From: Actinomycetaceae bacterium
Lineage (GTDB): Bacteria > Actinomycetota > Actinomycetes > Actinomycetales > Actinomycetaceae
Direction: 5' to 3'
Assembly (NCBI GenBank): GCA_030538185.1
Contig: JAUNUK010000003.1
Coordinates: 110,125 to 174,124 of the forward strand
DNA: 64,000 nucleotides
Every line of letters starts with the position of its first letter. Position 1 is the first letter of the stretch. The position numbers and the translations under genes were made by a program. The notes beneath the pieces were generated by a model that was given only the letters and a program-made list of their open reading frames with translations, searched no databases and was not told the origin of the DNA. Positions 2,012 through 45,054 of this stretch are shown piece by piece.

Positions 2012-2024
2012 GATTTCCGGCCAA

Positions 2025-2106
2025 AATTGCCGAGGGCGAAGTCCAAGGAATCTGTGGGCACACACAGTTTGTGCCGCAAGAGTTCCTGAGCTTCGCCCTC
2101 GGAATT
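2025..2106. terminator. about 80-nt imperfect palindrome / bidirectional terminator between convergent genes
   Basis: The outer perfect 12-bp stem is CCGAGGGCGAAG (2030-2041) paired with CTTCGCCCTCGG (2091-2102). Inner pairings are GGCACA/TGTGCC and AGGAA/TTCCT. Confidence 0.7.
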
Positions 2107-2115
2107 AGTCTTTGC

Positions 2116-2934: not shown

Positions 2935-3893
2935 CGCTCCTTATTCCGGGTCGTGAGCAGCAGCATTGCCACAATGATCAGGGCAAAGAACAAAATGAGG
3001 ACCGTTGAGGCCACACCGTACTCGTTGTAGTCAAAGCTCAGACCGTAGGCGTAGACGTTAAGGGTTTCGACTTCGTGGAATGAGCCACCACCGCGGCCTT
3101 TTGTCGAATAGAGAATGTCGAAGGTTTTTAGTGCATCGATACCGCGCAATAGCAAGGCAACGACAACCGATGGCCACACGAGCGGCAAGGTGACGTACCA
3201 GAACCGTTGCCACGCGCTTGCACCGTCGATGGCTGCGGCTTCGTCAGTTTCTTCCGGCAGAGAAGACAGACCGGCAAGAAGAATGAGGGCCACCATCGGG
3301 GTCCACTGCCACACATCGATCAGCATCGTGGTTGCCAGGGCCGTTTTTTCGCCAGAGAGCCACGGGAATGGGCCTAAACCAATAAGGCCCAGCAAGTAGT
3401 TGGCAGGTCCAATATTGGGGTCGAAGATGAGGCGCCACATCATTCCGACTGCAACGGGTGTGGCCACCAGCGGCATGAGAATAGCTACGCGCACAAAACC
3501 TTGTCCCTTGAAGGCCCGGCGCAGCAGCAAAGCGATACACATGCCCAAGACCATTTGCGCAAACAGGACCCCGCCGGTAAAGAAAAGCGTCCTCCACACC
3601 GAGGGCCAAAACCGGGCAGTGTCTGTCAAAACCTCGATGTAGTTGTCGATGCCGTTAAATTTCTTGGGTGCCCGAACCGAACCTTCTGCATTGGTAAAAC
3701 TGAGGTATATCGTCCATCCCAGGGGGAAAAGCAGCATTGCTGCGGTAAAAATCATCGCAGGTGCTGCCAACAACCACTTGCGATTCTTATTCGCCCAGCG
3801 AGAAAACTCACTTTGTTTCCGTCGCGGGTGATCAATGCTGGCCGAACCGGCCAAAATGCTAATGGGAACGTCAGAGCTAGTAGACATCCTCAC
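2931..3893 (-). CDS. carbohydrate ABC transporter permease (MalF-like)
   Basis: This is a polytopic 320-aa ORF with the EAA loop ETDEAAAIDGASAWQRF. It lies in an operon with the binding protein and the second permease. Confidence 0.85.
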   Translation of the reverse strand: MRMSTSSDVPISILAGSASIDHPRRKQSEFSRWANKNRKWLLAAPAMIFTAAMLLFPLGWTIYLSFTNAEGSVRAPKKFNGIDNYIEVLTDTARFWPSVWRTLFFTGGVLFAQMVLGMCIALLLRRAFKGQGFVRVAILMPLVATPVAVGMMWRLIFDPNIGPANYLLGLIGLGPFPWLSGEKTALATTMLIDVWQWTPMVALILLAGLSSLPEETDEAAAIDGASAWQRFWYVTLPLVWPSVVVALLLRGIDALKTFDILYSTKGRGGGSFHEVETLNVYAYGLSFDYNEYGVASTVLILFFALIIVAMLLLTTRNKER

Positions 3894-3911
3894 CTACCCT
3901 AAATTGTCGCA

Positions 3912-3974
3912 GTTGCGGGGATACCTGCGTTTCAGTCATAGAAAGAACTAGAAAGAAACAGGTATCCCCGCAAC
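3912..3974 (-). terminator. intercistronic stem-loop after the binding-protein gene (attenuator/mRNA stabiliser)
   Basis: A perfect 16-bp stem (GTTGCGGGGATACCTG / CAGGTATCCCCGCAAC) with a 31-nt loop sits between the SBP stop (3983) and the permease start (3893). Confidence 0.7.
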
Positions 3975-3982
3975 CATACGGG

Positions 3983-5272
3983 TTACTTATTCTCGTCGTC
4001 CAGGAATGCTTGGTACTCGGTGTGTGCGGAGGCTAATGCAGCCTCCCAGTCTTTACCAGTAATCCCCTCAACCAAAGGTTGACCCACGATCTCACGCGCC
4101 TTGGCGACCTGTATCACCAAAGGACGGTCGTGGCCGACACCAGTCTTTGCACCTTCTTGAGCTGCGGCAACCAAATCCTGTGGGTAGTCCTTCGTGGCTT
4201 CAGGATCTGCCCAGGTGGACACGCGCGCTGAAGGAACGCCAGACTGCTGGTTCTTCAGGGTCTGCGCCTTGCTGGTTGCCCACTCAATGAACTTCCAGGC
4301 ATTGTCCTTGTTCTTGGAACCTTCGTTCATGCCCAGTGCCCAGGAAGGAATATTGTAAGGCTTAGATCCTGCAGGTCCCGCGGGGAAGGCGGCGAAGCCG
4401 ACAGTCTCGGATACCTGGGACTTGGAAGGATCTGTCGCGTTCTTGTACAGGGAGTCAGCTTCAGTGTAGAAAGCCGACTGGCCTTGAGTGAAGACGGCCA
4501 TAGCCTCTGGCCAGCTCATATCAGTGGTGACCGAAGCGGGGCCATACTCACGGATCATCTTGCTGTAGAAGTTATAGGCATCCTTGGCTGCCTGTGTATC
4601 CAGCGTTGCCTTGCCGTCCTTGTCGAAGTCTCCTCCGAAGCTGTACAAGTAGCTAGAGAACTGGGTAACAGCAGCCGTGCGCCCTGTGCGAGCTACGAAT
4701 CCTGCGGTACCTGGGTTATCAGCCTTGATCTTGGCTGACATGCTCTCAAGTTCTTCCATAGTGGTGGGTGGTGCGCTGAAGCCGGACTTCTCTAGTAGAT
4801 CTTTTCGGTAGTAAAGGACCTCACGCTCGGTGATAATGGGGACACCCACAACCTTGCCCTCATATGTGGTGGCCGTAACTGGCCCTTCTTGATAGTCGGC
4901 CCAGTCCCAGTCTGCATTTTGCTTGACCATGTCAGTCAGATCGGACATCCACCCGTTGCGGGCGAACATCTTGCCTTCCTGCAGAGGGCGGTACATCATC
5001 ACATCTAGGTCTTCTGATCCAGCATTCAACTTGACGTTGTACTGGTCGGACAGCTGGTCCTCACCCAGCTGAGTAAGTTCAACCTTAAGTCCTGTTTCTT
5101 TTTCAAATTCCGGCAAGTCTGCCTTAATGTTTTCGGTCCACACGTGGTTGGCCAAAGTAACTCGAACGGTAGTGTCGCCTGCCTTGTCACCACCATCGCC
5201 TCCCCCACAACCGGCAAGGCCAAGTGATGCGATAATGGCAAGCGAAATACCTACAACATGGAAACGTCTCAA
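3983..5272 (-). CDS. sugar ABC transporter substrate-binding lipoprotein
   Basis: It has a signal peptide with the lipobox LAGCGG, is 429 aa long, and is the first gene of the ABC operon. Confidence 0.85.
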   Translation of the reverse strand: MRRFHVVGISLAIIASLGLAGCGGGDGGDKAGDTTVRVTLANHVWTENIKADLPEFEKETGLKVELTQLGEDQLSDQYNVKLNAGSEDLDVMMYRPLQEGKMFARNGWMSDLTDMVKQNADWDWADYQEGPVTATTYEGKVVGVPIITEREVLYYRKDLLEKSGFSAPPTTMEELESMSAKIKADNPGTAGFVARTGRTAAVTQFSSYLYSFGGDFDKDGKATLDTQAAKDAYNFYSKMIREYGPASVTTDMSWPEAMAVFTQGQSAFYTEADSLYKNATDPSKSQVSETVGFAAFPAGPAGSKPYNIPSWALGMNEGSKNKDNAWKFIEWATSKAQTLKNQQSGVPSARVSTWADPEATKDYPQDLVAAAQEGAKTGVGHDRPLVIQVAKAREIVGQPLVEGITGKDWEAALASAHTEYQAFLDDENK

Positions 5273-5349
5273 CAGATTCTCCTTTGATCAGTTGCTCGTC
5301 AGTGAGCGGTAGAAAGAGTGACTCCACCCGCATATCAACATGGTATAGA

Positions 5350-5364
5350 ATAAGTCAGACTTAT
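5350..5364. promoter_or_regulatory. candidate GntR-family operator
   Basis: The perfect palindrome ATAAGTC-A-GACTTAT (GT..AC core) lies in the 108-nt divergent region between the ABC operon and the GntR gene. Confidence 0.5.
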
Positions 5365-5380
5365 CAATTTAGGAAGCGCT

Positions 5381-6166
5381 TTGAGCAAAGTAATCAAATC
5401 TTTATCTAACCGAGAGCAAAGCTCCACCCTAGACCCCCCGGGCACACCCCCAGGTGGGAGCCTACAGCGCACCATTATCGAACGCTTTGGACGCAGCGTT
5501 ATAAGCGGCCAATGGGAAGCCGGGACCGTACTTAATATGGACGATCTGGCTCTTGAACACGGAGTTTCTCGCTCGGTCATCCGAGAAGCAGTGGGGGTGT
5601 TGACAAACTATGGCCTGCTCGAATCCAGAAAAAGAAGAGGAACCATCGTTCTTGAAAGCAGTGCTTGGAATGCTTTTGCCCCCGATGTCATTGCGTGGCG
5701 CCTAGACGATCCCCAGCAACGTGACGAACAGTTCAGGTCCCTTGTCGAACTGCGCATGGCTATCGAACCCGTCGCCGCATACCTTGCGGCCTACCGCATC
5801 GACCCTGAACAAGGCAAGCAACTAATCTCTGTGGCAGAAAAAATGATCGAGCTGGGCGCCTCGGGACGACTTGACCGTTTTTTGGAAGCAGACCTTTTAT
5901 TCCACCAAATTCTGCTGCAGGGATCGAATAATGACCTGTTTCTCACCTTAAACATGTTCATTGAAGAAATCCTCGCAGGCCGTCACCGCCTCGGCCGCAT
6001 GCCCTTCCGCACAGATCCTGGTGCAACAGATCAGCACCTTGTATTAGCTAAGGCCATCGCCCACGGCGATCCGCTCGCCGCTCGCGCAGCCTGCACCTAC
6101 ATCGTCGAACAGGCCGCTGAGGAACTTAACCTCGCCGACCCGACCTTGAGGGCCTTACACAATTAG
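5381..6166 (+). CDS. GntR/FadR-family transcriptional regulator (FCD domain)
   Basis: It has a winged HTH (LALEHGVSRSVIREAVGVLTNYGLLESRKRRGTIV) followed by a helical C-terminal domain. It is divergent from the ABC operon. Confidence 0.8.
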   Translation: MSKVIKSLSNREQSSTLDPPGTPPGGSLQRTIIERFGRSVISGQWEAGTVLNMDDLALEHGVSRSVIREAVGVLTNYGLLESRKRRGTIVLESSAWNAFAPDVIAWRLDDPQQRDEQFRSLVELRMAIEPVAAYLAAYRIDPEQGKQLISVAEKMIELGASGRLDRFLEADLLFHQILLQGSNNDLFLTLNMFIEEILAGRHRLGRMPFRTDPGATDQHLVLAKAIAHGDPLAARAACTYIVEQAAEELNLADPTLRALHN

Positions 6167-6202
6167 TTCTGTCGAAAACCGCGACCAGAGCAAGCACCAA
6201 GC

Positions 6203-6883
6203 CTAGGGCAGCGCCCACTCCACAGGCGTAGCACCCTGCTGCATCAGCAACTCATTCGCCCTCGAAAATGGTTTTGATCCGAAAAAACCGCGGGCAGCCG
6301 ACAAAGGTGATGGGTGCACAGATTCGATTCTCGGGGTTTCGCCCAGCATGGGGGCAAGGCTGCGCGCGTCATTCCCCCACAGGATTGCAACCAAAGGTTT
6401 GTTCCTGGCCACCAAAGCCTCGATCGCACACTGGGTGACTTCCTCCCATCCTTTACCGCGATGAGAGGCGGCCATGCCAGGCTGCACCGTCAACACACGG
6501 TTTAGCAAACACACACCTTGCTTCGCCCAAGGAATTAAATCTCCCGAGGACGGCATGCTTACACCCAAGTCGTCGTGCAATTCGTGATAGATATTGACCA
6601 AAGAACGTGGCGGGTTGACGCCGGGAGACACTGAAAAGCTGAGGCCCATGGCGTGACCTGGTGTTGGATAAGGATCTTGCCCCACCAGTAAAACCTTCAC
6701 CTCATCGAATGGGTAGGTAAAGGCGCGCAGCACGGCGCTGCCTGGAGGAAAGTAACCACGTCCCGCAGCTATTTCGGCGCGCAACATGTCACCCAGCACG
6801 CGGATCTGTCCTTCGACAGGACGCAAGGCAGTGGCCCACCCGGGATCTAGCAATTCTTCCAAAGGCTTTGGTGCATCGCTCAT
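6203..6883 (-). CDS. ung: uracil-DNA glycosylase, family 1
   Basis: It carries GQDPYP (motif A) and HPSPLS (motif B) and is 226 aa long. Confidence 0.92.
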
Positions 6884-6932
6884 ATTTCCAAGCCTAAGCT
6901 GTGTGTCCTTGTCTTGTCACGCGCGTCCCGCA

Positions 6933-8567
6933 TCAACTGGCGCGTCCCAACACTTCGTCAATCTTCAAGGCGAACTGGATATTGAAAAAGTCTTCTGATG
7001 TATCCACATCGCAGCTGAGAATTTTGTTTATTTTTTCAATCCGTGCGCGTAAGGTATTTTTATGAATACATAGCTGCTGTTCTGTGAGCACTTTAGAACG
7101 ATTGTTATTAATATATGTTTCCAACGTCTTTCTGAGCTCACTTCCATACTGGGTGTCGTGTGCAACCAAAGGCGATAGATACATGTCTTCCATTCTTGTC
7201 AAAAGATTGGCGTCAAGATTCCCTTCGTTGTCTATTAAAAATCTAATAACACCCAAATCTGAATAATAAACAAGGCTGCGACTAGCTTTCTTTCGTCTCG
7301 CGTAATCTGCTGCACGCATTGATTCAGATAGTCCTCTAGCCGTGTCCGACAAGGGCATTGGGCCACTTACCCCCACTGGAACCTCATACACATGCAAGGC
7401 CTTGACATAGAGTTCGCGGATTTTAAGAACGAGAGCTTCAATGTCAGTAAGTGAATCTGGGATAAGGAATAATTGTCCTCGTCTATGTTCGAACATAATA
7501 ATATGTTCCCATCGAAGAATATTTCTTTCGCACATTCCCTGGAAAAGACTCATCCTGCTGTTCATAGTAACCATAGAGTCCGCAAATTCTTCATGAGACA
7601 AGAAAACGAAATAATATCCAGAATGGATTTTTTTCTTGAGCGGTGAAAGGATACGCCGAGCACCCTCTGGGGTTAGTTGTGCCTCAGACAAAAGCACCTC
7701 AAGTAGGAGGCTGTTAAATTTTCGTGTCGCAGATGAGATTTCGTTTTGGCGGGTGAAGTGTAATGCCACAAAGAGGCTCAATGTCTGGACCTGTGTTAGC
7801 TCTAACCCTTGTAACGCTTCCTCTCCCTTTAAGGACGTCACCAGAATCCAGCCGTAGCGCGTCTGGTTAAATTCTACGGGATATGCAAAAACTCTAAGAC
7901 CGGCCTCAATCGTGGCCGAAGTGGTGATCTCTGCTGCCCCTGCGCCCTGCGAAGATTTTTGGGAGGTGGCACTGAGGCTAAGGTGACTACGGTCTGCCCC
8001 TTTCAGCAGCAGCTTCCAGTCGAGGTTGTCCGAGGCTCCAACCAGGTACAGATCGCTGTCTGCGATCGCAACCCCAAGTTTTGAGCCTGTAGCAGTGGTA
8101 GAGCAGATTTTACTTAAGGATTCACCTGCAATCACCGAGTTCATAAGCTCTTGATGGAAGTGTTGATTGTCTTCAATGGCACGATACGGGGCTCCGACCA
8201 TGGTTCTAATGATCGGATTCATCACTTGCCCCCAGTTCATATCTCCAGGGGCCAATAAGATAGGGAATCCAACTTCATCGCAATAGCTAAAGACTTCTTG
8301 AGGTAACCTTTCGGTGAATTTACTTTTCGTTACGATTCCTGCAACATCTTTGACGATCAGGGTGTCGATAAACTCTTTGGACAAGGTGTTTTCAAAGAGG
8401 ACACCCCCGATAAGCAATTCAAAACCGGTCAGCCAATCAGCTATATCTGGGATGTCCATAATGGTTACGGATGTAATTTTGCGCGACAGCCCTGTGGATC
8501 CTGCAAGGACGTGCAAGCTTCCGTCAACTTTCACCGCATCAGCAACTGTAAACACCTTGCCTCCCAA
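6933..8567 (-). CDS. PucR/CdaR-family transcriptional regulator
   Basis: It has a PucR-type N-terminal domain (HVLAGSTGLSRKITSVTIMDIPDIADWL) and a C-terminal HTH (LCIHKNTLRARIEKINKIL). Its composition is clearly AT-richer than the neighbouring genes. Confidence 0.8.
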   Translation of the reverse strand: MGGKVFTVADAVKVDGSLHVLAGSTGLSRKITSVTIMDIPDIADWLTGFELLIGGVLFENTLSKEFIDTLIVKDVAGIVTKSKFTERLPQEVFSYCDEVGFPILLAPGDMNWGQVMNPIIRTMVGAPYRAIEDNQHFHQELMNSVIAGESLSKICSTTATGSKLGVAIADSDLYLVGASDNLDWKLLLKGADRSHLSLSATSQKSSQGAGAAEITTSATIEAGLRVFAYPVEFNQTRYGWILVTSLKGEEALQGLELTQVQTLSLFVALHFTRQNEISSATRKFNSLLLEVLLSEAQLTPEGARRILSPLKKKIHSGYYFVFLSHEEFADSMVTMNSRMSLFQGMCERNILRWEHIIMFEHRRGQLFLIPDSLTDIEALVLKIRELYVKALHVYEVPVGVSGPMPLSDTARGLSESMRAADYARRKKASRSLVYYSDLGVIRFLIDNEGNLDANLLTRMEDMYLSPLVAHDTQYGSELRKTLETYINNNRSKVLTEQQLCIHKNTLRARIEKINKILSCDVDTSEDFFNIQFALKIDEVLGRAS

Positions 8568-8600
8568 GGCAATTCGTCATGCCATCGTCGGTCCAAGTTA

Positions 8601-8627
8601 GGACATAAGTCTTTTTAGACTATGTCC
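8601..8627. promoter_or_regulatory. imperfect palindrome in the pucR / carbamoyltransferase divergent promoter region
   Basis: The sequence is GGACATAAGTCT-TTTT-AGACTATGTCC (one bulged base). It shares the ATAAGTC/GACT half-site with the palindrome at 5350. Confidence 0.4.
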
Positions 8628-8759
8628 GATGGTACAAGAAAACCAGCAACAAACGTACCTTAGCACCATAGTTTTGCAGATAGTTTTCTCCCTACTCTAG
8701 AAACCTAGGCACCTGTTATCACACTGCCCCAGCAACAACGACGTAGCAACGGAGGATCT

Positions 8760-9698
8760 ATGCGTCACAACTTACGAGGTAACGATTACCTGGCATTCAA
8801 GGACATGACCCGAGAAGAAATTGAGTTCGTCGTAGATCTCTCTTTGGATCTCAAGAAGAAATGGGTGGCACGCGAACCCCACGAATACCTCAGAGGTCAG
8901 GTTTGGGCCGCTCTATTTGAAAAATCTTCCACCCGAACCCGTAACGCATTCCAACGCGCTGCAGCTGACCTTGGGATCACCAGCATCTACCTGCGTCCAG
9001 ACGAACTCCAAAGCGGCAGAGGCGAACCCTTGAAGGACACCGCCAGGATGTTCGACCGCTACTACGATGGCCTGTTCATCAGGACTTTTGGCCATGAAAT
9101 CGTGGAAGAGTACGCACAGTGGATGCAACACCCTGTTATCAATGGTCTAACCTCTTTGGCACACCCCACCCAAGGTATAGCCGACTTGATGACCATCAAG
9201 GAGAAAAAGCGAGACTACCCCGGTTTGAAGATTTGCTATGCCGGAAACCTCTACAACGTTTGCTATACGACCATGATCATGTGCGCAAGCTTCGGAATGA
9301 ACCTGACAGTGGCACGTCCTAACGGTATGGAACCCGAACCCATCATCCTGCAAGAAACCATGCGCAGGGCAGCGGTTAGTGGCGCCAAGATCAACTTCAC
9401 AGATAACTTCGATGAAGCACTTTCAGGTGCGGATATCGTCTACGGCATGTCCCATTACTCGATGGGCCAGCCACCGGAAGAAGTAGAGCAACTAAAGCGT
9501 GCCTTCGCCCCGTACCAAGTCAACAGTGAAGCGATGCGCAAGGCGAAGCCCGATGCGATTTTTATGCACTGTTTGCCGGCATACCGCGGAATTGATGTGA
9601 CGGACGAAGTCATGGAATCTGAGCAATCCATGGTCTGGGATCAAGGAGAAAACCGGATGCACTCTATCAAGGGCATCCTCGCCGCTGTTGCTCTTTAG
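8760..9698 (+). CDS. ATCase/OTCase-family carbamoyltransferase, atypical second-substrate motif
   Basis: It has STRTR, HPTQ and HCLP carbamoyl-phosphate motifs. The OTC motif DxxxSMG reads MSHYSMG, whereas the arcB paralog in this window has DIWVSMG. Confidence 0.75.
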   Translation: MRHNLRGNDYLAFKDMTREEIEFVVDLSLDLKKKWVAREPHEYLRGQVWAALFEKSSTRTRNAFQRAAADLGITSIYLRPDELQSGRGEPLKDTARMFDRYYDGLFIRTFGHEIVEEYAQWMQHPVINGLTSLAHPTQGIADLMTIKEKKRDYPGLKICYAGNLYNVCYTTMIMCASFGMNLTVARPNGMEPEPIILQETMRRAAVSGAKINFTDNFDEALSGADIVYGMSHYSMGQPPEEVEQLKRAFAPYQVNSEAMRKAKPDAIFMHCLPAYRGIDVTDEVMESEQSMVWDQGENRMHSIKGILAAVAL

Positions 9699-9773
9699 AA
9701 GATCCTCGCCATATTCACGGCACACCACCCAAAGGCGGGTAGGTGTTCTTTCTACAAAGATCTTGGAGTAATT

Positions 9774-11294
9774 ATGAAAACCAAGGAAGACTCTAGTAAA
9801 AAAGAAAAGAAACAGCTAAAGTCCCCGAATGCTTACGTCATTATTTTCTTCATTATTTTGGCCGTCGCTATTCTTACCTGGATAATCCCAGGTGGCCAAT
9901 ATGATCTGGATGAAAACGGCAGGGCGATTGGTGGAACCTATGAGTTAGCCAAGGCCAATCCACAGGGCCTATGGGACGTCATCATTGCACCCATTATTGG
10001 CATGGTAGGAAATAAAACCATCTCGGCTGCAATCGTGATCTCTCTCAACGTGCTGCTATTCGGCAGCTTCCTGGAGATGATGGAGACCTCGGGAGCCATT
10101 GGCCTTTTCCTAAAACGAGTTGCCATCAAAAACCAAAACAACTACAACCTGTTGATAGTCCTACTTACGACGATCATGGCTGTGTTCGGAACCGTTCAAG
10201 GCGCATACGAAGAGGGCTTCGTGTACCTTCTGATGTTCCTTCCAATCATCCTGGCTCTGGGCCTAGACACGATGGTTGCCGTCATGATTGTCGTCTTTGG
10301 AACGCAAGCAGGATGTCTGGCCTCCGTAGTCAACCCATTTGCAACCGGCATTGCTTCGGGAATCGCAGGGATCAGCCCCGGGGACGGAATGATTTTGCGT
10401 ATCGTCATCCTCATCGTCATGGTTGCCGTTGTATCCACCTACATTTGCCTATACGCCAAGAAGATTAAGGCAGATCCCAGCAAGTCTCCGCAGTTCTATC
10501 GCAGAGACGAAGACCTGAAGGAATTTGCAGTCGCCACCCAAGAAGACCTGTCTATGAGCAGGCGTCAAAAGGGTGTGTTGGGCATGTTTGCAGGGACCTT
10601 CGCAATCTTGATCGTCTCCCTAGTGCCGTGGGCAAGTTTGCATCCCAGTTGGACATTCTTCAAAGACTTCACGACGTGGATTACTGAAATGCCGATTTTG
10701 GGCACTGTCCTCGGGAAGAGTCTTGTTCCCTTCGGAGACTGGTATTTCAACGAGATTAATGCCTTGCTTATTGTGTCGACGATTATCTCTGGCTTCATTA
10801 TGGGATACAAGATCGATAAGACAATCAATATCATCATTAAAGGTGCAGGAGCGCTTATTGGCACAGCCTTTATCATTCCACTTGCGCGAGGAATACAGGT
10901 AATAATGGACGGAGGGAATGTTACACCAACAATCCTCCACTTTGGAGAGACCACCCTTTCCAGCCTGCCCCCCATGGTGTTTGTGATCGTTTGTTTGGTG
11001 TTCTATCTCGTCATGGCTTCGTTCATACCCAGTTCGACTGGCCTGGCAGCAGCCACAATGTCGATTATGGCTCCCTTGGCAGTCTTTGCGGGAGTAAAAG
11101 AAGAAATCATGGTGGACATCTACTTAATGGCTCTAGGGATGGCAAAGATGATCATGCCCACCTCTATTGTCGTCATGACCTGCACTCAAGCGGCGCATGT
11201 CAACTATGGAACATGGGTAAAAACAAACTGGAAATTTGTCTTAGTTTTATTTGCTATCTGCAGCGTATTCCTGCTTATTGGAATACTTCTGTAA
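9774..11294 (+). CDS. YfcC/DcuC-family anaerobic carrier (putative substrate/product antiporter)
   Basis: This is a 506-aa polytopic protein. Segments resemble E. coli YfcC as I remember it (EEGFVYLLMFLPIILALGLD, NPFATGIASGIAG). Confidence 0.75.
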   Translation: MKTKEDSSKKEKKQLKSPNAYVIIFFIILAVAILTWIIPGGQYDLDENGRAIGGTYELAKANPQGLWDVIIAPIIGMVGNKTISAAIVISLNVLLFGSFLEMMETSGAIGLFLKRVAIKNQNNYNLLIVLLTTIMAVFGTVQGAYEEGFVYLLMFLPIILALGLDTMVAVMIVVFGTQAGCLASVVNPFATGIASGIAGISPGDGMILRIVILIVMVAVVSTYICLYAKKIKADPSKSPQFYRRDEDLKEFAVATQEDLSMSRRQKGVLGMFAGTFAILIVSLVPWASLHPSWTFFKDFTTWITEMPILGTVLGKSLVPFGDWYFNEINALLIVSTIISGFIMGYKIDKTINIIIKGAGALIGTAFIIPLARGIQVIMDGGNVTPTILHFGETTLSSLPPMVFVIVCLVFYLVMASFIPSSTGLAAATMSIMAPLAVFAGVKEEIMVDIYLMALGMAKMIMPTSIVVMTCTQAAHVNYGTWVKTNWKFVLVLFAICSVFLLIGILL

Positions 11295-11326
11295 TATCCA
11301 AAATTTATACACACCAGGAGGAAACA

Positions 11327-12178
11327 ATGGAAAAGACCTTTGTAAGCAATGCGACAAATGTACTCAAAAGTGTGCTTGTGTGTTCTCCACAGTACTACGT
11401 ATTCAATGCTATAAACGAAATCACGAAAAGCTGGATGGAGAAAGGAGAAACCGAACAAAATGACCTGATGGTCAAAGAATGGAAGGAGCTAATGGATGCC
11501 TACCGAGCCAACGGAGTGACCGTTCACGAGATGGAACCAGATCCTTCCATGCAAATCCAAACCTTTGCCCGCGACTTTGGGGCGTGCATCAAGGAAGGGG
11601 CCATCATCGGCAAATTCCGCCACCCTGCTCGACAGGTCGAAACCGTAGCCTACGAGGCAAGGTTGAAGGAGCTCGGTGTCCCTATCGTTGCTCGCTGTAA
11701 CGCAGGATGTTTCGAAGGCGGAGACTTTTGGATGATCGATGAGCACACACTCGCCTTTGGCCTCGTAGACCGAACTGACCTGGCAGGGGTAGCTAACCTT
11801 CGAGAACAACTCGAAAAATTCGGGTACACCGTAATCGGGGTTCCAGTACCCCCAGCGAACCTTCACCTGGACATGGTTTTCAATATTGTGGCAGAGAAGG
11901 TCTGTCTAGCTGCCCTTGAACAACTTCCCTACAATTTTATACAAATGCTCAAGCGCAGGAACTTTGAGATCATTCCCGTGGAAAGCGAATTGGTCTTCAA
12001 ACATGGCTGCAATGTTCAAGCTCTGGGCGAAGGCAAAGTCCTTGGCATCACCAACAATGCGACTGTCAATCAGCGGATGAAAGCTCTGGGGATCGATGTT
12101 GTGGAAGTCGATTTGATGCAAATCCTTAAGGCAGGTGGCGGACCCCACTGCATGTCATTCCCTGTTGAGAGGCCCTGA
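11327..12178 (+). CDS. small guanidino-group-modifying hydrolase (amidinotransferase/DDAH/arginine-deiminase superfamily)
   Basis: ATG 11327 follows an AGGAGG Shine-Dalgarno. It has an ADI-like LHLDMVFN motif and a C-terminal catalytic-Cys motif GGGPHCMSFPV. At 284 aa it is much shorter than canonical ArcA. Confidence 0.7.
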   Translation: MEKTFVSNATNVLKSVLVCSPQYYVFNAINEITKSWMEKGETEQNDLMVKEWKELMDAYRANGVTVHEMEPDPSMQIQTFARDFGACIKEGAIIGKFRHPARQVETVAYEARLKELGVPIVARCNAGCFEGGDFWMIDEHTLAFGLVDRTDLAGVANLREQLEKFGYTVIGVPVPPANLHLDMVFNIVAEKVCLAALEQLPYNFIQMLKRRNFEIIPVESELVFKHGCNVQALGEGKVLGITNNATVNQRMKALGIDVVEVDLMQILKAGGGPHCMSFPVERP

Positions 12179-12179
12179 T

Positions 12180-13166
12180 ATGAAAGTCCTGATCAGTGAC
12201 TACAAGGACTCCATGATGCCGGAGCACAACTACGAGATTGAGGTGTTAAAGGCTGGTCTTCCCAACGTTGACGTCGAGGTATATGAATACACTGATGCAA
12301 ACCGTTTGAGCTTCATCGAAAAAATCGGCTCAGTTGATGCTTTACTAACGGCCTTTATTCCCATAGACAAGGCCATTTTGGACAACGCTCCAGTGCTGAA
12401 GGTCATTTCCTTGAACGCCACAGGCTACGACAATGTGGATCTCACGGAGGCCACCAAACACAGCATCGGGGTTTGTCCTGTGGGGGAATACTGCACTCAG
12501 GACGTAGCCGAACACACCATCGCGCTCATGCTAAGCCTGAACAAGAATCTCAAGTATTACGCCTACTCAATAGAACGGTCTTTCAAATGGGCTTTCGATG
12601 CGGCACCTGCCCCTGTCCGCATAGGTAATCAAACCTTGGGGATCTTTGGTCTCGGACGCATAGGGAGAGCCGTTGCAAGCAAGGCTCAGTGTCTGGGCAT
12701 GAAGGTCATAGCGCATGACCCGTTTGTTAACGCTGCAGAAGCGCAAGCATTGGGAGTCGAGTTAACCGATCTCAAAGATCTGCTCAGGCGTTCGGATGTT
12801 ATTTCAAACCACATGAATCTGGGAGAGGAGACTACACATTATTTTACCGATGCAGAATTCAAAGCAATGGCGCGTCGTCCCATATTTCTCAACCTGGGAC
12901 GAGGCTTGAGTGTCGATGAGGCCGCTTTGGTTGAGGCCCTTGATACAGGACAGGTTCGCGCAGCTGGTTTGGATGTACTGACGAACGAACGACCAGTCTT
13001 AGAAGGGCACCCCCTGACAAATAGACCAAATGTCATTATCACGCCACATTCAGCCTTTTACTCTGAGGAGTCATTCATAGATATTCAAAGAATTTCTTGT
13101 CAAAACATCGTCAACTATTTGACAAACAAGAAAGACAAAGTATTCAAACTAGTGAACGATGTGTGA
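12180..13166 (+). CDS. D-isomer-specific 2-hydroxyacid dehydrogenase
   Basis: It has the NAD motif GIFGLGRIGRAV...AHD, the catalytic region NLGRG...E...ITPHSAF, and its start lies 1 nt after the upstream stop. Confidence 0.8.
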   Translation: MKVLISDYKDSMMPEHNYEIEVLKAGLPNVDVEVYEYTDANRLSFIEKIGSVDALLTAFIPIDKAILDNAPVLKVISLNATGYDNVDLTEATKHSIGVCPVGEYCTQDVAEHTIALMLSLNKNLKYYAYSIERSFKWAFDAAPAPVRIGNQTLGIFGLGRIGRAVASKAQCLGMKVIAHDPFVNAAEAQALGVELTDLKDLLRRSDVISNHMNLGEETTHYFTDAEFKAMARRPIFLNLGRGLSVDEAALVEALDTGQVRAAGLDVLTNERPVLEGHPLTNRPNVIITPHSAFYSEESFIDIQRISCQNIVNYLTNKKDKVFKLVNDV

Positions 13167-13178
13167 AATGGTTTTTGG

Positions 13179-14564
13179 GTGGCACGCATTATCGTGCCAC
13201 CCAAAAACAAGAGGGAGTCACACGTGAATGAGACCACAGTCTCAAGGTCAAGGCTACTGAAGTTCTCAGCGGTGGCCTTGGTTGGCTTGGGCGCATTTAC
13301 TGTGCCTTTTCCGTACCAAGGCTCTGTCACCATTGCAGTTGGAGCCATTACTGATGTATTAACTTACATTTCACAAGGTGCCATTGATTTTGTTTTGATA
13401 TTCCTTACCTCCATCTCGACTATAGGCTCAGTCCTAGCCACGATCCTCAAACAGTTAAATAAGCTGAATCCTGAAAGCCAATTTCAAAAACTCTTTTACA
13501 CGACCCCGATATACCTGGTAACCAAGCTTATTGCCTTCGCCCTTTTAGTCGCCTATTACTCAAATTTCACGACCGACGTCTTGCCACTTTCTGAACCAAC
13601 AACACAGATGATCTCTTTGGCTAAGACTCTTATTGCCTTGGCAGTTTCCCTCAGTTTCTTGCTTCCTTTCCTCACCGAAGGAGGCTTGATGGAGTTCATT
13701 GGAGAACTCACCAAACCCTTTGTTCAACCCCTGTTCAAGGTGCCCTCGCACGCATCACTGGATCTCATAGCTTCCTGGTTGGGCGCATCAAGTGCCGCAG
13801 TGATCTTGTCGGCTGAAAAATATAGAGAGGGCTACTATTCAAAGCGAGAAGTAGCCAATGTCATGTGCAACTTCTCTCTGGTTTCCATTCCCTTTTGCTT
13901 GGTGGTTGCGAAGGCAGCAAGGGTCGATCAGTATTTCTCAATCATGTACCTGCTTTTGTGCGTATTAGGTGTAATCCTCGCAATAATTGCTCCACGGATT
14001 TACCCTCTGAACCGGATTGAAGACACTTTCATAGGAACCAGGACCAAACTTATTCCTCCAAGTTCCGACAAGCATATCCTTGCACGTGCTCTGGACTTGG
14101 GGTGCCAGCAAGTCCAACACTTCACCTGGCGCCTCCTGCTTCGCTCTGGCACACAAGTGTGTTTAGGAATTTGCCTAAACCTTGTGCCCATAGTCATCGC
14201 CTGGGGTGTTGCAGGACTTCTCGTAGTTCAACACACGCCCCTGTTGAACTGGATAGCCTTCCCCATGGGGCTGTTGCTCGAAGTAATGGGCGTTCAAAGC
14301 GCTGCATCTGTTGCCCCTGCAACCTTGGCAGGTTTCGTGGATATGTTTATACCCGCACTGCTCATAGGGGATGTCGAACCGACCGCGACACGATTCATTA
14401 TCGCCACCCTGTCCTTGATCCAAATCATCTACATCACAGAAGTCGGTGTCATCATTATCAAAACTGACGTTGGCCTCAATTTTTGGAAACTCTTCATCAT
14501 CTTCATTGAACGCACCCTAATCTCCTTGCCGCTCATCGTCCTAGTAGCGAAACTCATCTTCTAA
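13179..14564 (+). CDS. polytopic membrane protein, nucleoside-recognition (Gate)/YjiH-like putative transporter
   Basis: This is a 461-aa ORF with many hydrophobic segments and is the last gene of the AT-richer operon. The family assignment is from memory of YjiH-type proteins and the start codon is uncertain. Confidence 0.5.
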   Translation: MARIIVPPKNKRESHVNETTVSRSRLLKFSAVALVGLGAFTVPFPYQGSVTIAVGAITDVLTYISQGAIDFVLIFLTSISTIGSVLATILKQLNKLNPESQFQKLFYTTPIYLVTKLIAFALLVAYYSNFTTDVLPLSEPTTQMISLAKTLIALAVSLSFLLPFLTEGGLMEFIGELTKPFVQPLFKVPSHASLDLIASWLGASSAAVILSAEKYREGYYSKREVANVMCNFSLVSIPFCLVVAKAARVDQYFSIMYLLLCVLGVILAIIAPRIYPLNRIEDTFIGTRTKLIPPSSDKHILARALDLGCQQVQHFTWRLLLRSGTQVCLGICLNLVPIVIAWGVAGLLVVQHTPLLNWIAFPMGLLLEVMGVQSAASVAPATLAGFVDMFIPALLIGDVEPTATRFIIATLSLIQIIYITEVGVIIIKTDVGLNFWKLFIIFIERTLISLPLIVLVAKLIF

Positions 14565-14623
14565 TGCTGTAAGGACCCCTCACGCATCTGTTGAATACCT
14601 TCGTTATCCCATACAATCGACAC

Positions 14624-15949
14624 ATGCCTCAATCCCTGCAGATCTCTGCTGCCACGGTCGATCCTGCACTCCTAGACCTGCCTTGGGACATTGCCTTAGA
14701 ACAGTGGCCAGCCCACCATTTAGCCACTTTACCCAGGGGTATTTCTCGTCACGTAGTGCGTTTCGTGAACTTGTCTGGACGCATTATCGCGGTGAAGGAA
14801 ATCAGCGGGATCGTCGCGCGAGGGGAATATGACCTCTTGTGGGAGCTAGACAGATTGGGTGCGCCCTCCGTGCAAGCTACAGCGGTCATTACCGGACGCA
14901 CAGATGCCAAAGGTGAAGAGCTCAACTCCGCCCTCGTCACTGAGCATTTGTCGTATTCCTTGCCTTATCGCGCCCTCTTTAGCCAAAATATGCGCCCTGA
15001 AACGGCAACCCGCCTCATCGACTCTTTGGCGGTCCTCTTGGTGCGGCTGCACTTACTGGGCTTCTACTGGGGGGATGTCTCCCTGTCCAACACGCTCTTC
15101 CGCCGAGACGCCGGGGCGTTTGCCGCCTACCTGGTGGATGCGGAAACTGGGGAGCTACACCCCGAGGGACTAAGCAATGGCCAGCGCAACTATGACGTGG
15201 ACTTAGCGCGCACCAATATCATTGGCGAACTGATGGACTTGCAGGCCGGGGCCCTACTGGAACCCAATGTGGACACAATCGATGTGGGCAACCGGATTGT
15301 GGAACGCTATGAAACCCTGTGGGAGGAACTGACCGCGCGCGAATCCTTCACGGTCAAAGAACGCTGGCGGGTCCAAGAGCGCATCAGGCGCCTCAACGAT
15401 CTGGGGTTCGATGTGGGCGAACTGTCCATCACTCAAGATCCGACCACCGTTGGCCAAGCCAAACTATCCATTGAACCGAAGGTCGTGGATGCGGGGCACT
15501 ATCAGCGGCAAATCATGCGTCTGACAGGTCTGGATGTGCAAGAAAACCAAGGTCGGCGCATGCTCAATAACCTTCAGACGTATATTACGTTCAGCGGGAA
15601 AGAAAAGCTGCCCATTGAACTGGCCGCACACCAGTGGCTAGCCGAGGTTTTTGAACCCACAGTTCACGCCGTCCCCCCCGAACTATCCTCAAAGCTGGAA
15701 CCCGCCGAAATCTTCCATGAGGTCTTGGAACACCGCTGGTACCTCTCCGAGGAACGCAAAAAAGAAGTCCCCTTGCCCGAAGCTGTGAAATCTTACGTTA
15801 AGAAAGTGCTCATCAACCGGCCAGATGAGGCGGCCATGCTGGACCTGCCAAAAGAGACCGCAGATGGTTTTGATGGCATTAGTATCGAGGACACCACCAG
15901 CTACAGCCAAGATGATGGCTTCAAAGAAAGCGAGGAGCCAGTTGTTTAG
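14624..15949 (+). CDS. DUF4032 / lipopolysaccharide-kinase-like protein conserved in actinobacteria
   Basis: It has a kinase-like core (GFYWGDVSLSNTLFRRDAGAFAAYLVDAETGE). I prefer ATG 14624 over TTG 14591. Confidence 0.6.
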   Translation: MPQSLQISAATVDPALLDLPWDIALEQWPAHHLATLPRGISRHVVRFVNLSGRIIAVKEISGIVARGEYDLLWELDRLGAPSVQATAVITGRTDAKGEELNSALVTEHLSYSLPYRALFSQNMRPETATRLIDSLAVLLVRLHLLGFYWGDVSLSNTLFRRDAGAFAAYLVDAETGELHPEGLSNGQRNYDVDLARTNIIGELMDLQAGALLEPNVDTIDVGNRIVERYETLWEELTARESFTVKERWRVQERIRRLNDLGFDVGELSITQDPTTVGQAKLSIEPKVVDAGHYQRQIMRLTGLDVQENQGRRMLNNLQTYITFSGKEKLPIELAAHQWLAEVFEPTVHAVPPELSSKLEPAEIFHEVLEHRWYLSEERKKEVPLPEAVKSYVKKVLINRPDEAAMLDLPKETADGFDGISIEDTTSYSQDDGFKESEEPVV

Positions 15950-15953
15950 CAGA

Positions 15954-16679
15954 ATGCCCAGGATTTACGCACATCGGGGTATGTGCCTACAGGCTCCTGA
16001 AAATACCTTGGCCGCCTTTCGTATGGCTAAAGAGGCAGGCGCAGGATGGATCGAAACCGATGTCGACGTGACCAGTGATGGCACCCCCATCATCATTCAT
16101 GACACAGATCTGGACCGCACCACCAACCGAAGCGGCTCCATATATGACCTGGGGGCCGATGACCTTGAGGGAATCGACGCCGGTTCCTGGTTTTCTTCCG
16201 ATTTCGAGGGCGAACCCCTACCGACCCTGACCCAATTGGTGGATCTGATGAACGAGATCCACTTATCGGCAAATATTGAGCTAAAGTCACATGAAACCGG
16301 AGCTGCCCTGTCCAGGTCTTTAATCTGGAATACGATTGGCGAACTGATGCGTCTCAAGCGCGGCGCTCACGTCGTGGTTTCCTCCTTCAACCCCCTGCTG
16401 CTGGCGGAGTTCAAACGTGCGGCCCCCCAGTGGCCGGTTGCTTGGCTTACGACCCGCGAAACATTTGCTTCAGATTGGCGTTCCATGCTGGAACTCATTG
16501 ATGCCGACTATTTGCATCCCGAGGACGCCTCCCTTACACGCGAAAAAGTGCGTATGGTGCGCGCGGCAGGGTTCGGGGTCAATGTGTGGACCGTGAACTC
16601 TCGTGCAAGGGCCAATGAGCTAAAGAATTGGGGCGTAACCGGGATTATTACCGATCGCGCGGACCATTTGCTGAATTAG
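15954..16679 (+). CDS. glycerophosphodiester phosphodiesterase
   Basis: It has GDPD motifs (YAHRG...ENTLAAF, ETDV, IIHD). ATG 15954 lies just after the upstream stop. Confidence 0.85.
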   Translation: MPRIYAHRGMCLQAPENTLAAFRMAKEAGAGWIETDVDVTSDGTPIIIHDTDLDRTTNRSGSIYDLGADDLEGIDAGSWFSSDFEGEPLPTLTQLVDLMNEIHLSANIELKSHETGAALSRSLIWNTIGELMRLKRGAHVVVSSFNPLLLAEFKRAAPQWPVAWLTTRETFASDWRSMLELIDADYLHPEDASLTREKVRMVRAAGFGVNVWTVNSRARANELKNWGVTGIITDRADHLLN

Positions 16680-16691
16680 TTGACTTAGTTG

Positions 16692-18011
16692 TCAGGAGTC
16701 CAAGCGCGAAGCTCGGCGCTGTTCCAGTTCTTCTAGACGCCTGCTTTCCTTGGTGCCCAAGTACTTCGCGACGACGACCTCTCCTATGGCGTCCAATATG
16801 ATAACCACGCCACCTACAGAGGTGAGGAACTTGCCCAGTCCACCCATGCGTTGGGACTTCAGTGCCTTGAATACCAGTGCCCCGCCGGCAAGAGCTTGCA
16901 AAGCAGCAAAGATACGCACAATCCAAGGATTTTCGATGGCAACCTTGTGGTACATCGACCAGTAGGTCGATGAAGAAAAAGCAGGATCTGTCAAGATGAC
17001 ATCAACCGAACGCCCCAAGGCGTGTGTCATGCCTTTGTCTTCATGAACATCTGCGTCCTCAAGTTTTTCCGCAGGCAGGTTGCCCTTCAAGAAATCAATA
17101 ACCTCACCAGGCAGCCTTACAGCTCGGCACATGGCGAGGAACCCTACGGTTCCAGGTGTCTCTAAGGCGGTAATAACGGCCTTTGCATCAACCTCACCTA
17201 GTGCTTCATGAATCGCATCAACCAACCTGGCGCGTCCAACGAGGGAAGCAATCAGGTTTTTCGTCTCCGGATCGATGGCCTGGGGTTTGGAGCCCGCCAG
17301 GAGTATAGAATCCATTGCCCAGGTGTGCCCATCCCACGCCGCGCTGCCCTCGTCTGCGGCTTTCCAGATGCGAAGCGTTTGCTCGTCAGGAGACCATCGC
17401 AGCTCGATGACAGGAACCTCTGTCAAGCTCCAGGCCACTTTCGAGGCAGGTTCTTCTGGTCCTCGCTGCCACAAAACTAGTCTGCGGTCATCGTCGTAAT
17501 CCATGCAATGCAAGGTTTGGCCTTCTGCGGTTGCCCTGACCGGGATCGCTGCCGCCGCCATATGGGTGATTTCAACCGTACGCAACACCTGGGATGCTGC
17601 CTGTTCTTCTTCATCCACGACAGGAGGGGTGGTGTCTTGCGGATAATTGTCTATCGCCACCTGACCAATGCGCACATCGGCCTTGAAGGTCGAGGCCAGA
17701 GATAAAACCAGTTCTTCAAGGTCCAGACCTGGCTCCAAGGCGCCTTTTTTAATTACGGCGACCCGTGAGTCCGCGTCACAGGCCAGGGTGATGGACAACA
17801 AATGAGGGGTTGCTGGATACCATTCCAGGCAGGCCACGATGTCTTGGTCCTTGAGGAAGTCAGCGACCTGCGCAGGCGTAACCTCAGCCAAAACCACCAT
17901 GCCCTCGGTGCGATTCCACTGGGCGCCAAGGGCTTCATCCTGAGTATTCAAGGTCTCCTGCGCAACACGTAAATCTTCATGTGTCTGGTCAAGATCTGTT
18001 GACTTTTCCAT
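16692..18011 (-). CDS. hypothetical protein with C-terminal membrane hairpin
   Basis: ATG 18011 is preceded by GGAGGAATCT. I recognise no family. Two hydrophobic segments lie near the C-terminus (IVRIFAALQALAGGALVF, LTSVGGVVIILDAIGEVVV). Confidence 0.55.
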   Translation of the reverse strand: MEKSTDLDQTHEDLRVAQETLNTQDEALGAQWNRTEGMVVLAEVTPAQVADFLKDQDIVACLEWYPATPHLLSITLACDADSRVAVIKKGALEPGLDLEELVLSLASTFKADVRIGQVAIDNYPQDTTPPVVDEEEQAASQVLRTVEITHMAAAAIPVRATAEGQTLHCMDYDDDRRLVLWQRGPEEPASKVAWSLTEVPVIELRWSPDEQTLRIWKAADEGSAAWDGHTWAMDSILLAGSKPQAIDPETKNLIASLVGRARLVDAIHEALGEVDAKAVITALETPGTVGFLAMCRAVRLPGEVIDFLKGNLPAEKLEDADVHEDKGMTHALGRSVDVILTDPAFSSSTYWSMYHKVAIENPWIVRIFAALQALAGGALVFKALKSQRMGGLGKFLTSVGGVVIILDAIGEVVVAKYLGTKESRRLEELEQRRASRLDS

Positions 18012-18079
18012 AGATTCCTCCGATGTAGGCCAAGGGCACATCCACTAGCCTAGTGTACCCTCACGCCCTAAAAACGCCG

Positions 18080-41799: not shown

Positions 41800-41953
41800 T
41801 TATCTACAGGCTATATACGGCAGTGAACAGTGTTCGCACCAATCGAAACTGCCTGGTATGAATCCTCATTCGGACAGAGATGGTCTGCTGACAAGTTGCA
41901 GCGAACGGCACAGAAGTATTAGAGGTATCAGCAGACCGCAGACAATTGGTGTC

Positions 41954-44950: not shown

Positions 44951-44962
44951 ACCAAACAAAGT

Positions 44963-45034: not shown

Positions 45035-45054
45035 GAATTATTGTCCTGTGTGGG

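Follow-up and report, generated by a model that had tools for sequence, protein, structure and literature searches.

Within a 64,000-nucleotide stretch of an Actinomycetaceae metagenome-assembled genome (the window), positions 6933-14564 hold a PucR-family regulator gene and a five-gene operon, together referred to here as the island. We lean towards reading the island as an acquired operon for a route that would lead from a deiminase through a carbamoyltransferase to carbamate kinase, with 2-oxo- or 2-hydroxy-5-guanidinovalerate as the most likely substrate. This reading draws on the residues kept and lost in the predicted active sites of the hydrolase and the carbamoyltransferase, and on the conservation of the gene set among distant hosts. 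The features are:

6933-8567, minus strand: PucR-family transcriptional regulator, divergent from the operon (Pfam PucR N-terminal domain and HTH_30)
8568-8759, no strand: divergent intergenic region of 192 nt separating regulator from operon, presumed promoter/operator
8760-9698, plus strand: carbamoyltransferase resembling ornithine carbamoyltransferase (OTC), class 1 (Pfam OTCace_N and OTCace)
9774-11294, plus strand: YfcC/DcuC-family carrier, presumed substrate/product exchanger (Pfam DcuC; NCBIfam YfcC)
11327-12178, plus strand: hydrolase of the guanidino-group-modifying superfamily, 283 aa, presumed deiminase (Pfam DDAH_eukar and ADI)
12180-13166, plus strand: NAD-type D-2-hydroxyacid dehydrogenase (Pfam 2-Hacid_dh_C and 2-Hacid_dh)
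13179-14564, plus strand: Gate-domain (YjiH-like) membrane protein, accessory transporter (Pfam Gate)
6203-6883: ung, island flank
14591-15949: DUF4032 (Kdo-kinase-like), island flank, with a GDPD gene next
49040-49951, plus strand: carbamate kinase arcC, outside the island (NCBIfam carbamate kinase)

Every family assignment in the island is backed by Pfam and NCBIfam. A first-pass annotation of this DNA had described a PucR regulator divergent from a packed five-gene operon with gaps of 75, 32, 1 and 12 nt, lying between ung and DUF4032; the open reading frame (ORF) map reproduces this layout exactly and both flanks were found.

Conserved gene set and predicted active sites

The gene set is widely conserved. 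A scan of one genome per species, in which loci encoding a hydrolase 66-86% identical to that of the island were kept and their content was read by tblastn and ORF clustering, gave related loci in 52 other species from three phyla. The question raised by the first-pass annotation, whether the set is conserved, could be answered in the affirmative since the carbamoyltransferase, YfcC carrier, hydrolase and dehydrogenase occur together in 45 of the 52 loci. Of the seven that remain, six are truncated by a contig end and that of Isobaculum melis has no dehydrogenase gene. The YfcC carrier is found in every cluster not cut by a contig end, and a PucR-family gene adjoins the cluster in 33 loci. Carbamate kinase is encoded within the cluster in 27 (arcC model, 412 bits against a cut-off of 358), so that a hydrolase, a transferase and a YfcC carrier are conserved together, with a kinase in about half of the loci, as in pathways of the arginine deiminase (ADI) or agmatine deiminase (AgDI) type. 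The earlier argument that such a cluster would generate carbamoyl phosphate, and from it ATP, is supported by these cluster-borne kinases. Fourteen loci have the Gate-domain gene and nine have a gene for a sodium:solute symporter; we dropped the symporter family as a candidate proline carrier since it reaches 105 bits on PutP, where the cut-off is 515. No further recurrent enzyme family was seen across the 52 clusters.

The hydrolase belongs to the guanidino-group-modifying superfamily, as first proposed, at a length of 283 and not 284 aa, its ATG being preceded by AGGAGG. It falls far under all NCBIfam equivalog cut-offs for ADI and DDAH, with 85, 75 and 50 bits on the DDAH models against cut-offs of 300, 340 and 450, and 75 bits against 489 on the ADI model TIGR01078. 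Its best Pfam match, DDAH_eukar, places it with DDAH at superfamily level only, and ADI enzymes are longer (about 410 aa, with a helical insertion). Sequence matches in the PDB were weak (E about 1e-8 with the single sequence and about 1e-11 with a family profile) and comprised ArgZ, NnhA, ADI, amidinotransferase and DDAH. An AlphaFold2 model (pLDDT 86) was compared by Foldseek, and the nearest folds were the ArgZ N-domain (TM-score 0.82/0.85) and the DDAH of P. aeruginosa (PaDDAH; 0.77/0.85), all at 22% identity or less; normalised to ADI the TM-score was 0.55-0.57. Public names for this hydrolase range from arginine deiminase to nitrate reductase.

At the level of single residues the hydrolase resembles ADI. 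HMMER aligned E130, H180-L-D182 and H274-C275 with ADI E224, H278-L-D280 and H405-C406, and D83 with the clamp of the ADI D166-type FxRD motif, so the Cys-His-Glu triad (C275, H180, E130) and the two Asp guanidinium clamps (D83, D182) of ADI are both in place. Alignment to PaDDAH by hhalign (probability 99%) paired D83 with D66, R102 with R85, E130 with E114, R149 with R132, H180 with H162, C275 with C249 and I77 with D60. No variation is seen among 51 homologues at C275, H180, E130, D83, D182, R102 and R149, nor at R98, H99, R123, H226 and H274. In human DDAH1 (hDDAH1) the alpha-amino group is held by Asp73 and the carboxylate by Arg145, with Asp79 and Asp269 as the guanidine clamps (PMC10958460). 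We equated PaDDAH Asp60 with hDDAH1 Asp73 because both lie six residues before the guanidine-clamp Asp (Asp66 and Asp79, respectively). The Asp that holds the alpha-amino group in DDAH is thus absent here, position 77 being Val in 48 and Ile in three of the 51 homologues. By this substitution and the equivalog scores the enzyme is neither a standard DDAH nor a standard ADI; it represents a new hydrolase family of roughly 800 members with an ADI-type active site, presumably a deiminase. The Vagococcus elongatus cluster (L015) carries an additional gene at 4573-5355 of its locus, between carbamate kinase and YfcC, whose product is a close PaDDAH homologue (E 1e-77) with Ser in place of Asp60. 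This paralogue may act on a dimethylated alpha-deamino analogue of arginine.

The carbamoyltransferase was compared with the OTC of P. furiosus and with the window's own canonical OTC (47983-49014). It keeps the carbamoyl-phosphate motifs STRT (as SSTRTR), HPxQ (as HPTQ) and HCLP (as HCLPA), the tripeptide SMG and, two residues ahead of STRT, the Lys (FEKxSTRT). The altered second-substrate motif noticed in the first-pass annotation is real: GDGNNV has become GN-LYNV and TDVWASMG has become GMSHYSMG. In the GDxxNN motif (human Asp196-Asn199) the Asp is replaced by Asn and the first Asn by Tyr, while the second Asn is kept, and in the DxxxSMG loop Met stands at the Asp position (G-M-S-H-Y-SMG); the window's own OTC keeps GDGRNN and TDIWVSMG. 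In OTC the Lys before STRT forms an ion pair with the ornithine alpha-carboxylate and it is absent from putrescine carbamoyltransferases (PMC3282769). Human Asp263 is listed, with Asn199, Ser267 and Met268, among the active-site residues of OTC (PMC6098936). The Asp of DxxxSMG corresponds to this Asp263. We take Asp263 to contact the alpha-amino group of ornithine, as in OTC-PALO structures.

These changes recur throughout the clusters. The 44 cluster-linked carbamoyltransferases that could be aligned fall into two classes, of which class 1 is 63-85% identical to the island enzyme and has the same motif changes in 33 homologues. Class 2, from Eggerthellaceae, Olsenella, a Lachnospiraceae metagenome-assembled genome, a Bacillota metagenome-assembled genome, Clostridium lamae and Neobacillus, is 36-42% identical to class 1 and 44-48% to true OTCs, with an insertion of the E. 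coli type following HCLP. Over the motifs compared, it departs from OTC essentially by GD to GQ (GQGRNN), TD to (A/T)N and SMG to AMG. As read from the alignments, the same two Asp have been lost in two independent carbamoyltransferase lineages and the carboxylate-binding elements have been kept. With both ornithine-site Asp replaced, the enzyme departs from a normal OTC, as had been suspected.

The dehydrogenase matches the D-isomer-specific 2-hydroxyacid dehydrogenase family (Pfam 2-Hacid_dh_C, 174 bits; 2-Hacid_dh, 82 bits) and lies under every NCBIfam equivalog cut-off. It has the NAD fingerprint GLGRIG...HD, and its catalytic residues, the R in NLGRG, the E in LTNE and the H in TPHS, align with phosphoglycerate dehydrogenase (PGDH) of P. 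horikoshii. Its gene starts 1 nt past the hydrolase stop here, with a gap of 0 nt in V. elongatus, and adjoins the hydrolase gene in 47 loci; it is predicted to be translationally coupled to the hydrolase. A second hydrolase-dehydrogenase pair with a 4-nt overlap lies downstream of the cluster in Lachnospiraceae bacterium MGBC000001 (14700-16432 of locus L047), its hydrolase being 28% and its dehydrogenase 55% identical to the island proteins, which suggests a recurrent functional coupling of the two families.

Proposed pathway and alternatives

In the scheme that we propose, the YfcC carrier, aided by the Gate-domain protein, would import the substrate and probably export the amine product in return. 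The Cys-His-Glu hydrolase would convert the guanidino group to a ureido group with release of ammonia, the OTC-like carbamoyltransferase would phosphorolyse the ureido compound to carbamoyl phosphate and the amine, and carbamate kinase would turn carbamoyl phosphate and ADP into ATP, CO2 and NH3. The kinase is cluster-encoded in 27 other species; in this genome the likely consumer of the carbamoyl phosphate is the product of arcC at 49040-49951. The dehydrogenase would interconvert the 2-hydroxy and 2-oxo forms with NAD, and the PucR-family protein is the presumed substrate-responsive activator. One speculative rationale for the dehydrogenase is that 5-amino-2-oxopentanoate would cyclise spontaneously to pyrroline-2-carboxylate and so pull the unfavourable phosphorolysis forward.

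Several features of the active sites bear on the identity of the substrate. The conserved R102 and R149 of the hydrolase together with the Lys and SMG loop of the carbamoyltransferase suggest that it is of ornithine length and has a carboxylate where arginine and ornithine have theirs at the alpha position, and since residues that recognise arginine, citrulline and ornithine have been lost it is probably a different guanidino acid. Three to four independent losses (position 77 of the hydrolase, class-1 and class-2 carbamoyltransferases, and the V. elongatus DDAH paralogue) point to a substrate without an alpha-ammonium group. Given the coupled dehydrogenase, 2-oxoarginine and argininate would be the most economical candidates; the most likely are therefore predicted to be 5-guanidino-2-oxopentanoate (2-oxoarginine) and its reduced form 5-guanidino-2-hydroxypentanoate (argininate). 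The first-pass annotation had offered three routes, and the active-site evidence favours the first, that of a 2-oxo or 2-hydroxy analogue of arginine, and speaks against both the methylarginine route and the ureide/oxalurate route, the latter being unlikely.

There are points that weigh against this assignment. What is proposed for the substrate derives from residues lost in alignments of about 20-45% identity, and its C5 chain length would follow only from the retained OTC-like geometry. The replacements at the alpha-amino site are partly hydrophobic (Met, Val/Ile), and a plain methylene, such as that of 5-guanidinovalerate, fits there at least as well as a hydroxyl or keto group. Neither 2-oxoarginine nor argininate is known to be abundant where the hosts live (gut, urogenital and plant-associated habitats), and the PucR family has historically been tied to purine and ureide catabolism. 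The carbamoyltransferase scores over the OTC equivalog cut-off of TIGR00658 (332 against 281 bits), which means that this model does not discriminate the subfamily, and over that of NF001986 too. Finally, the dehydrogenase gene is absent without remnant from the clusters of I. melis and of an Enterococcus mundtii plasmid, both otherwise intact, so the enzyme would be accessory and not part of the core chemistry.

The alternative that survives best keeps the same scheme and replaces the substrate with a plain omega-guanidino acid (5-guanidinovalerate, 4-guanidinobutyrate or 3-guanidinopropionate), the dehydrogenase then being peripheral or redox-related. Such a substrate would suit the hydrophobic character of the former alpha-amino site (Met in class-1 carbamoyltransferases, Val/Ile77 in the hydrolase), the two intact clusters that lack the dehydrogenase and the retained carboxylate ligands. 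Against it count a dehydrogenase present in 47 loci, coupled to the hydrolase and paired with it a second time in L047, as well as the polar Asn/Gln that class-2 carbamoyltransferases place at the two former Asp positions and the invariant Arg98 and His99 beside the carboxylate site. We regard it as rather unlikely.

A ureide route, in which the dehydrogenase would oxidise ureidoglycolate to oxalurate, the carbamoyltransferase would be the Gram-positive oxamate carbamoyltransferase and the hydrolase would open allantoate or a related ureide, has several attractions and we still think it unlikely, a shade more so than a plain guanidino acid. The regulator is of the PucR family, the cluster is found in Enterococcus and Streptococcus, and the oxalurate pathway is the only known case in which oxidation of a 2-hydroxyacid is linked with a carbamoyltransferase and with a carbamate kinase of its own. 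As of 2012 no gene had been assigned to the oxamate transcarbamylase of Enterococcus/Streptococcus (PMC3282769); in E. coli the enzyme is AllFGH, which is unrelated (PMC11326118). Two of the top fold matches, ArgZ and NnhA, are hydrolases that act on ureido groups and on ring carbons, respectively. Against this route, the hydrolase keeps both ADI-type Asp guanidinium clamps and two Arg spaced for a carboxylate at arginine length, the Lys/SMG geometry of class-2 carbamoyltransferases indicates a distal carboxylate and is ill suited to the two-carbon oxamate, and no allantoinase, allantoate amidohydrolase or ureidoglycine hydrolase is present in the 52 clusters. PucR-family proteins also regulate non-purine pathways, as the names of matching NCBIfam models (PmfR, AdeR, CdaR) indicate, and no AllD-type (Ldh_2) or AllFGH-type family was among the Pfam and NCBIfam matches of the island proteins. 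That the carbamoyltransferase might itself be the long-sought OTC-type oxamate carbamoyltransferase of Gram-positive allantoin/oxalurate fermenters seems to us quite improbable.

We consider it more improbable still that the island is a variant of the ordinary arginine deiminase pathway, with a mini arginine deiminase, a catabolic OTC and a YfcC-type arginine/ornithine antiporter. In its favour, the carbamoyltransferase passes TIGR00658 and NF001986 and PGAP calls the plasmid homologue argF, the window is without arcA, and YfcC-type carriers reportedly act as ArcD in streptococci (PMC4129364). Yet two independent lineages have lost both Asp of the ornithine site of OTC, the hydrolase has no alpha-amino ligand and reaches only 75 of the 489 bits set for arcA, a canonical OTC is already present in the genome and the dehydrogenase would have no role. 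Least probable of all is methylarginine catabolism, in which a DDAH-like hydrolase would make citrulline from asymmetric dimethylarginine or monomethylarginine for phosphorolysis by the carbamoyltransferase: the best Pfam match and the size of the hydrolase, and the close PaDDAH homologue in V. elongatus, would fit, but the guanidinium clamp is ADI-type (H-L-D) where DDAH would have its C-terminal Asp, neither the hydrolase nor that paralogue has the alpha-amino Asp, the carbamoyltransferase lacks the residues for the alpha-amino group of citrulline or ornithine, and all three DDAH equivalog scores are far under their cut-offs.

Acquisition and genomic setting

The island is a horizontally acquired mobile module, as its base composition, its identity to copies in distant hosts and a plasmid-borne copy indicate. 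Its hydrolase and carbamoyltransferase are 85-86% identical to Lachnospiraceae copies, the Firmicutes-like matches that had been expected of an acquired operon, and to Klebsiella copies as well, and no other Actinomycetaceae copy of the flanking DUF4032 protein is more than 75% identical to it. A further copy resides on the 147-kb conjugative plasmid pLDW-8 of E. mundtii (NZ_CP018062.1, 62942-68880), beside a recombinase gene, with PucR, 'argF', YfcC and an 'arginine deiminase family protein' and without the dehydrogenase. The hosts of the 52 loci include Lachnospiraceae and Oscillospiraceae; Enterococcus, Streptococcus (including Streptococcus suis), Vagococcus and other Lactobacillales; Lactobacillus jensenii and Levilactobacillus; Paenibacillus, Neobacillus and Clostridium; Klebsiella spallanzanii and K. 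indica; and Eggerthellaceae and Olsenella. They are gut, urogenital, food and plant-associated bacteria, and those that can be cultivated include L. jensenii DSM 20557, E. cecorum, S. suis, K. spallanzanii and Schaedlerella arabinosiphila. Complete genomes of E. coli do not carry the cluster.

The island is AT-richer than its surroundings, as first noticed (GC 0.479 against 0.545 in the remaining window). A check of its composition against 209 windows of the same size that do not overlap it (mean GC 0.544, sd 0.0195, minimum 0.510) confirmed the deviation, the island having the lowest GC of the window at about 3.3 sd under the mean. At third codon positions (GC3) the operon genes are mildly shifted (0.535-0.61 against 0.57-0.64 in the flanks), and the PucR gene, with the lowest GC in the island (0.457), shows a clear shift (GC3 0.47). 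The 9-mer CCGAGGGCG occurs 21 times in the window where 0.62 copies are expected, and the first-pass annotation was correct that the island holds none. Some 2.5 copies would be expected in the 7.6-kb island, which gives a probability of zero copies of about 0.08, and the stretch free of the 9-mer (2103-18284) is far wider than the island; its lack was thus rejected as too weak a sign of foreign origin. The 9-mer is found on both strands in genic and intergenic DNA (sites include 443, 2030, 2094, 18285, 21155, 21180 and 60165), is mostly preceded by A/T-rich ATTT or ATTG and forms close inverted pairs at 2030/2094 and 21155/21180, a pattern that resembles a DNA-uptake-sequence-like or REP-like genomic word.

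No clean empty insertion site was found in relatives with the nearest DUF4032 homologues (68-75% identical). These relatives keep the DUF4032-GDPD pair with another upstream neighbour (a MalK-like ABC ATPase gene and not ung for Buchananella, Boudabousia and Actinomycetaceae TAE3-ERU4), and with synteny broken in this way the comparison before and after insertion is not clean. The DUF4032 ORF as listed has 452 aa from a TTG start, 11 residues more than the database protein (441 aa), and runs 125 nt past the listed start of the GDPD ORF that follows it (region 14591-16679); both listed starts are thus probably too far upstream. The database holds 100% identical hydrolase and DUF4032 proteins under an Actinomycetaceae name. 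An exact-sequence look-up of the hydrolase returned no match.

The regulator exceeds the Pfam gathering thresholds for both its N-terminal PucR domain (74 bits) and its C-terminal HTH_30 (56 bits), and its conserved divergent adjacency suggests that it controls the operon. Scans of the island and of the divergent intergenic region gave no sigma-70-like site, terminator or inverted repeat above shuffled expectation, and since no element stood out the promoter/operator role of 8568-8759 is a presumption from its position. The YfcC carrier scores 283 bits on Pfam DcuC and 191 on NCBIfam YfcC, under the cut-off of 500, and shares only 24% identity with the other YfcC of the window; the last gene of the operon, named a YjiH-like permease at first pass, was substantiated as such by a Pfam Gate match of 38.8 bits.

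The arcC gene at 49040-49951 (475 bits against the NCBIfam cut-off of 361) is indeed the sole carbamate kinase gene of the window. It lies at the end of a region (45055-49951) that also holds the second YfcC on the minus strand, a LuxR-type regulator (GC 0.44) and a canonical catabolic OTC (PRK01713, 621 bits), and a second low-GC patch is seen there, the 7.6-kb window 41801-49432 being second lowest with a GC of 0.510. No arginine deiminase (arcA) or other ORF of the guanidino-modifying superfamily was found elsewhere in the 64 kb. This region may be a unit for citrulline catabolism, or arcA may lie elsewhere.

Two further gene contexts were seen. In L. jensenii (1838-3695 of locus L031) and Streptococcus didelphis (L017) a gene of the OCD/mu-crystallin family adjoins the PucR gene of the cluster, with a gene for a membrane protein of 291-302 aa also beside it. 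The OCD-family gene reaches 439 bits with PRK08618 and has matches to pyrroline-2-carboxylate reductase models as well; it would fit the reduction of a cyclic imino-acid product and, found in two loci only, serves as a lead. Relatives of the hydrolase at about 30% identity are encoded on the Sinorhizobium meliloti plasmid pMl1 and on about 75 other plasmids (rhizobial, Phaeobacter, Streptomyces). The gene context was opened for pMl1 alone, where the neighbours are an amidase, a class-III aminotransferase, a 3-keto-5-aminohexanoate cleavage protein, an FCD regulator and an amino-acid ABC transporter. These genes probably belong to a further uncharacterised pathway for a guanidino compound.

Novelty and comparison with known systems

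No description of the cluster was found in full-text literature searches, which left subscription journals mostly outside their scope, and in this respect the first-pass annotation, which had called the pathway undescribed, still stands. For the oxalurate/oxamate literature the searches turned up only the unrelated E. coli AllFGH enzyme. Two papers were considered as prior descriptions and set aside, since that on UGTCase concerns pseudo-ATCases and not the OTC-like clade, and that on a reductive uric-acid pathway concerns YgeW. In public annotation the parts appear as argF, an arginine deiminase or DDAH family protein, YfcC and a 2-hydroxyacid dehydrogenase. What is new with respect to carbamoyl-phosphate pathways of the ADI or AgDI type is the hydrolase family, the non-OTC transferases and the added dehydrogenase.

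Substrate-level phosphorylation from carbamoyl phosphate is, as far as we know, established for very few substrates. We tentatively put forward, with confidence well short of even, that the cluster encodes a fourth natural carbamoyl-phosphate fermentation after those of arginine, agmatine and oxalurate, a mobile one acting on acids of the 2-oxoarginine/argininate type with a new deiminase family and two converged carbamoyltransferase lineages, and driven by cyclisation. If this were true, models of host-associated anaerobes would have to include a further horizontally spread energy source, and it would suggest a microbial sink for the guanidino acids that accumulate in uraemia and argininaemia. 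The carbamoyltransferase also exposes a systematic annotation error, as it passes a curated OTC equivalog model and is labelled argF; PGAP names the pLDW-8 enzyme argF, ornithine carbamoyltransferase, with a Gene Ontology term for arginine biosynthesis. Two lineages with the same two Asp lost would be a clean convergent change of specificity in a textbook enzyme family.

One of the known systems most like the island is the arginine deiminase pathway (arcA-arcB-arcC-arcD), with which it shares a Cys-hydrolase, a phosphorolytic carbamoyltransferase of OTC fold, carbamate kinase and a YfcC-type exchanger like streptococcal ArcD. In contrast to ADI, the island hydrolase, at 283 aa, is without the helical insertion and at most 22% identical to solved ADI, DDAH and ArgZ structures; both it and the carbamoyltransferase are without the residues that would hold an alpha-amino group, a dehydrogenase has been added, and the regulator is PucR-type and not ArgR/ArcR.

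The agmatine deiminase pathway of E. faecalis (aguR-aguB-aguD-aguA-aguC) has the order regulator, transferase, carrier, deiminase and, in some cases, kinase, and the island has the same order. Agmatine deiminase is another branch of the guanidino-modifying superfamily, and the agmatine pathway, unlike the island, contains no dehydrogenase. Its transferase is likewise an OTC derivative retuned for another amine through changes in the SMG/230 loop (PMC3282769). Since putrescine is without a carboxylate, the putrescine carbamoyltransferase of this pathway no longer has the Lys that pairs with one, nor the SMG signature, whereas the island enzyme keeps both and loses the acidic residues.

The oxalurate/oxamate pathway resembles the island in that a 2-hydroxyacid dehydrogenase works alongside a carbamoyltransferase and a carbamate kinase of the pathway's own, and in its purine-catabolism-type regulation. 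However, E. coli AllD and AllFGH are unrelated in sequence family to the island enzymes, AllD belonging to a dehydrogenase family other than that of the island, no guanidino-modifying hydrolase is needed there, and the predicted active-site geometry of the island enzymes would fit a longer, carboxylated guanidino substrate. Lastly, the N-domain of cyanobacterial arginine dihydrolase (ArgZ/AgrE) and Pseudomonas DDAH share with the island hydrolase the alpha/beta-propeller fold (TM-score 0.77-0.85), a similar size, the Cys-His-acid triad and two carboxylate-binding Arg. The island hydrolase differs from them in being about 21% identical, in its ADI-type H-L-D clamp, in Val/Ile at the place of the alpha-amino Asp and in the additional invariant R98, H99, R123, H226 and H274.

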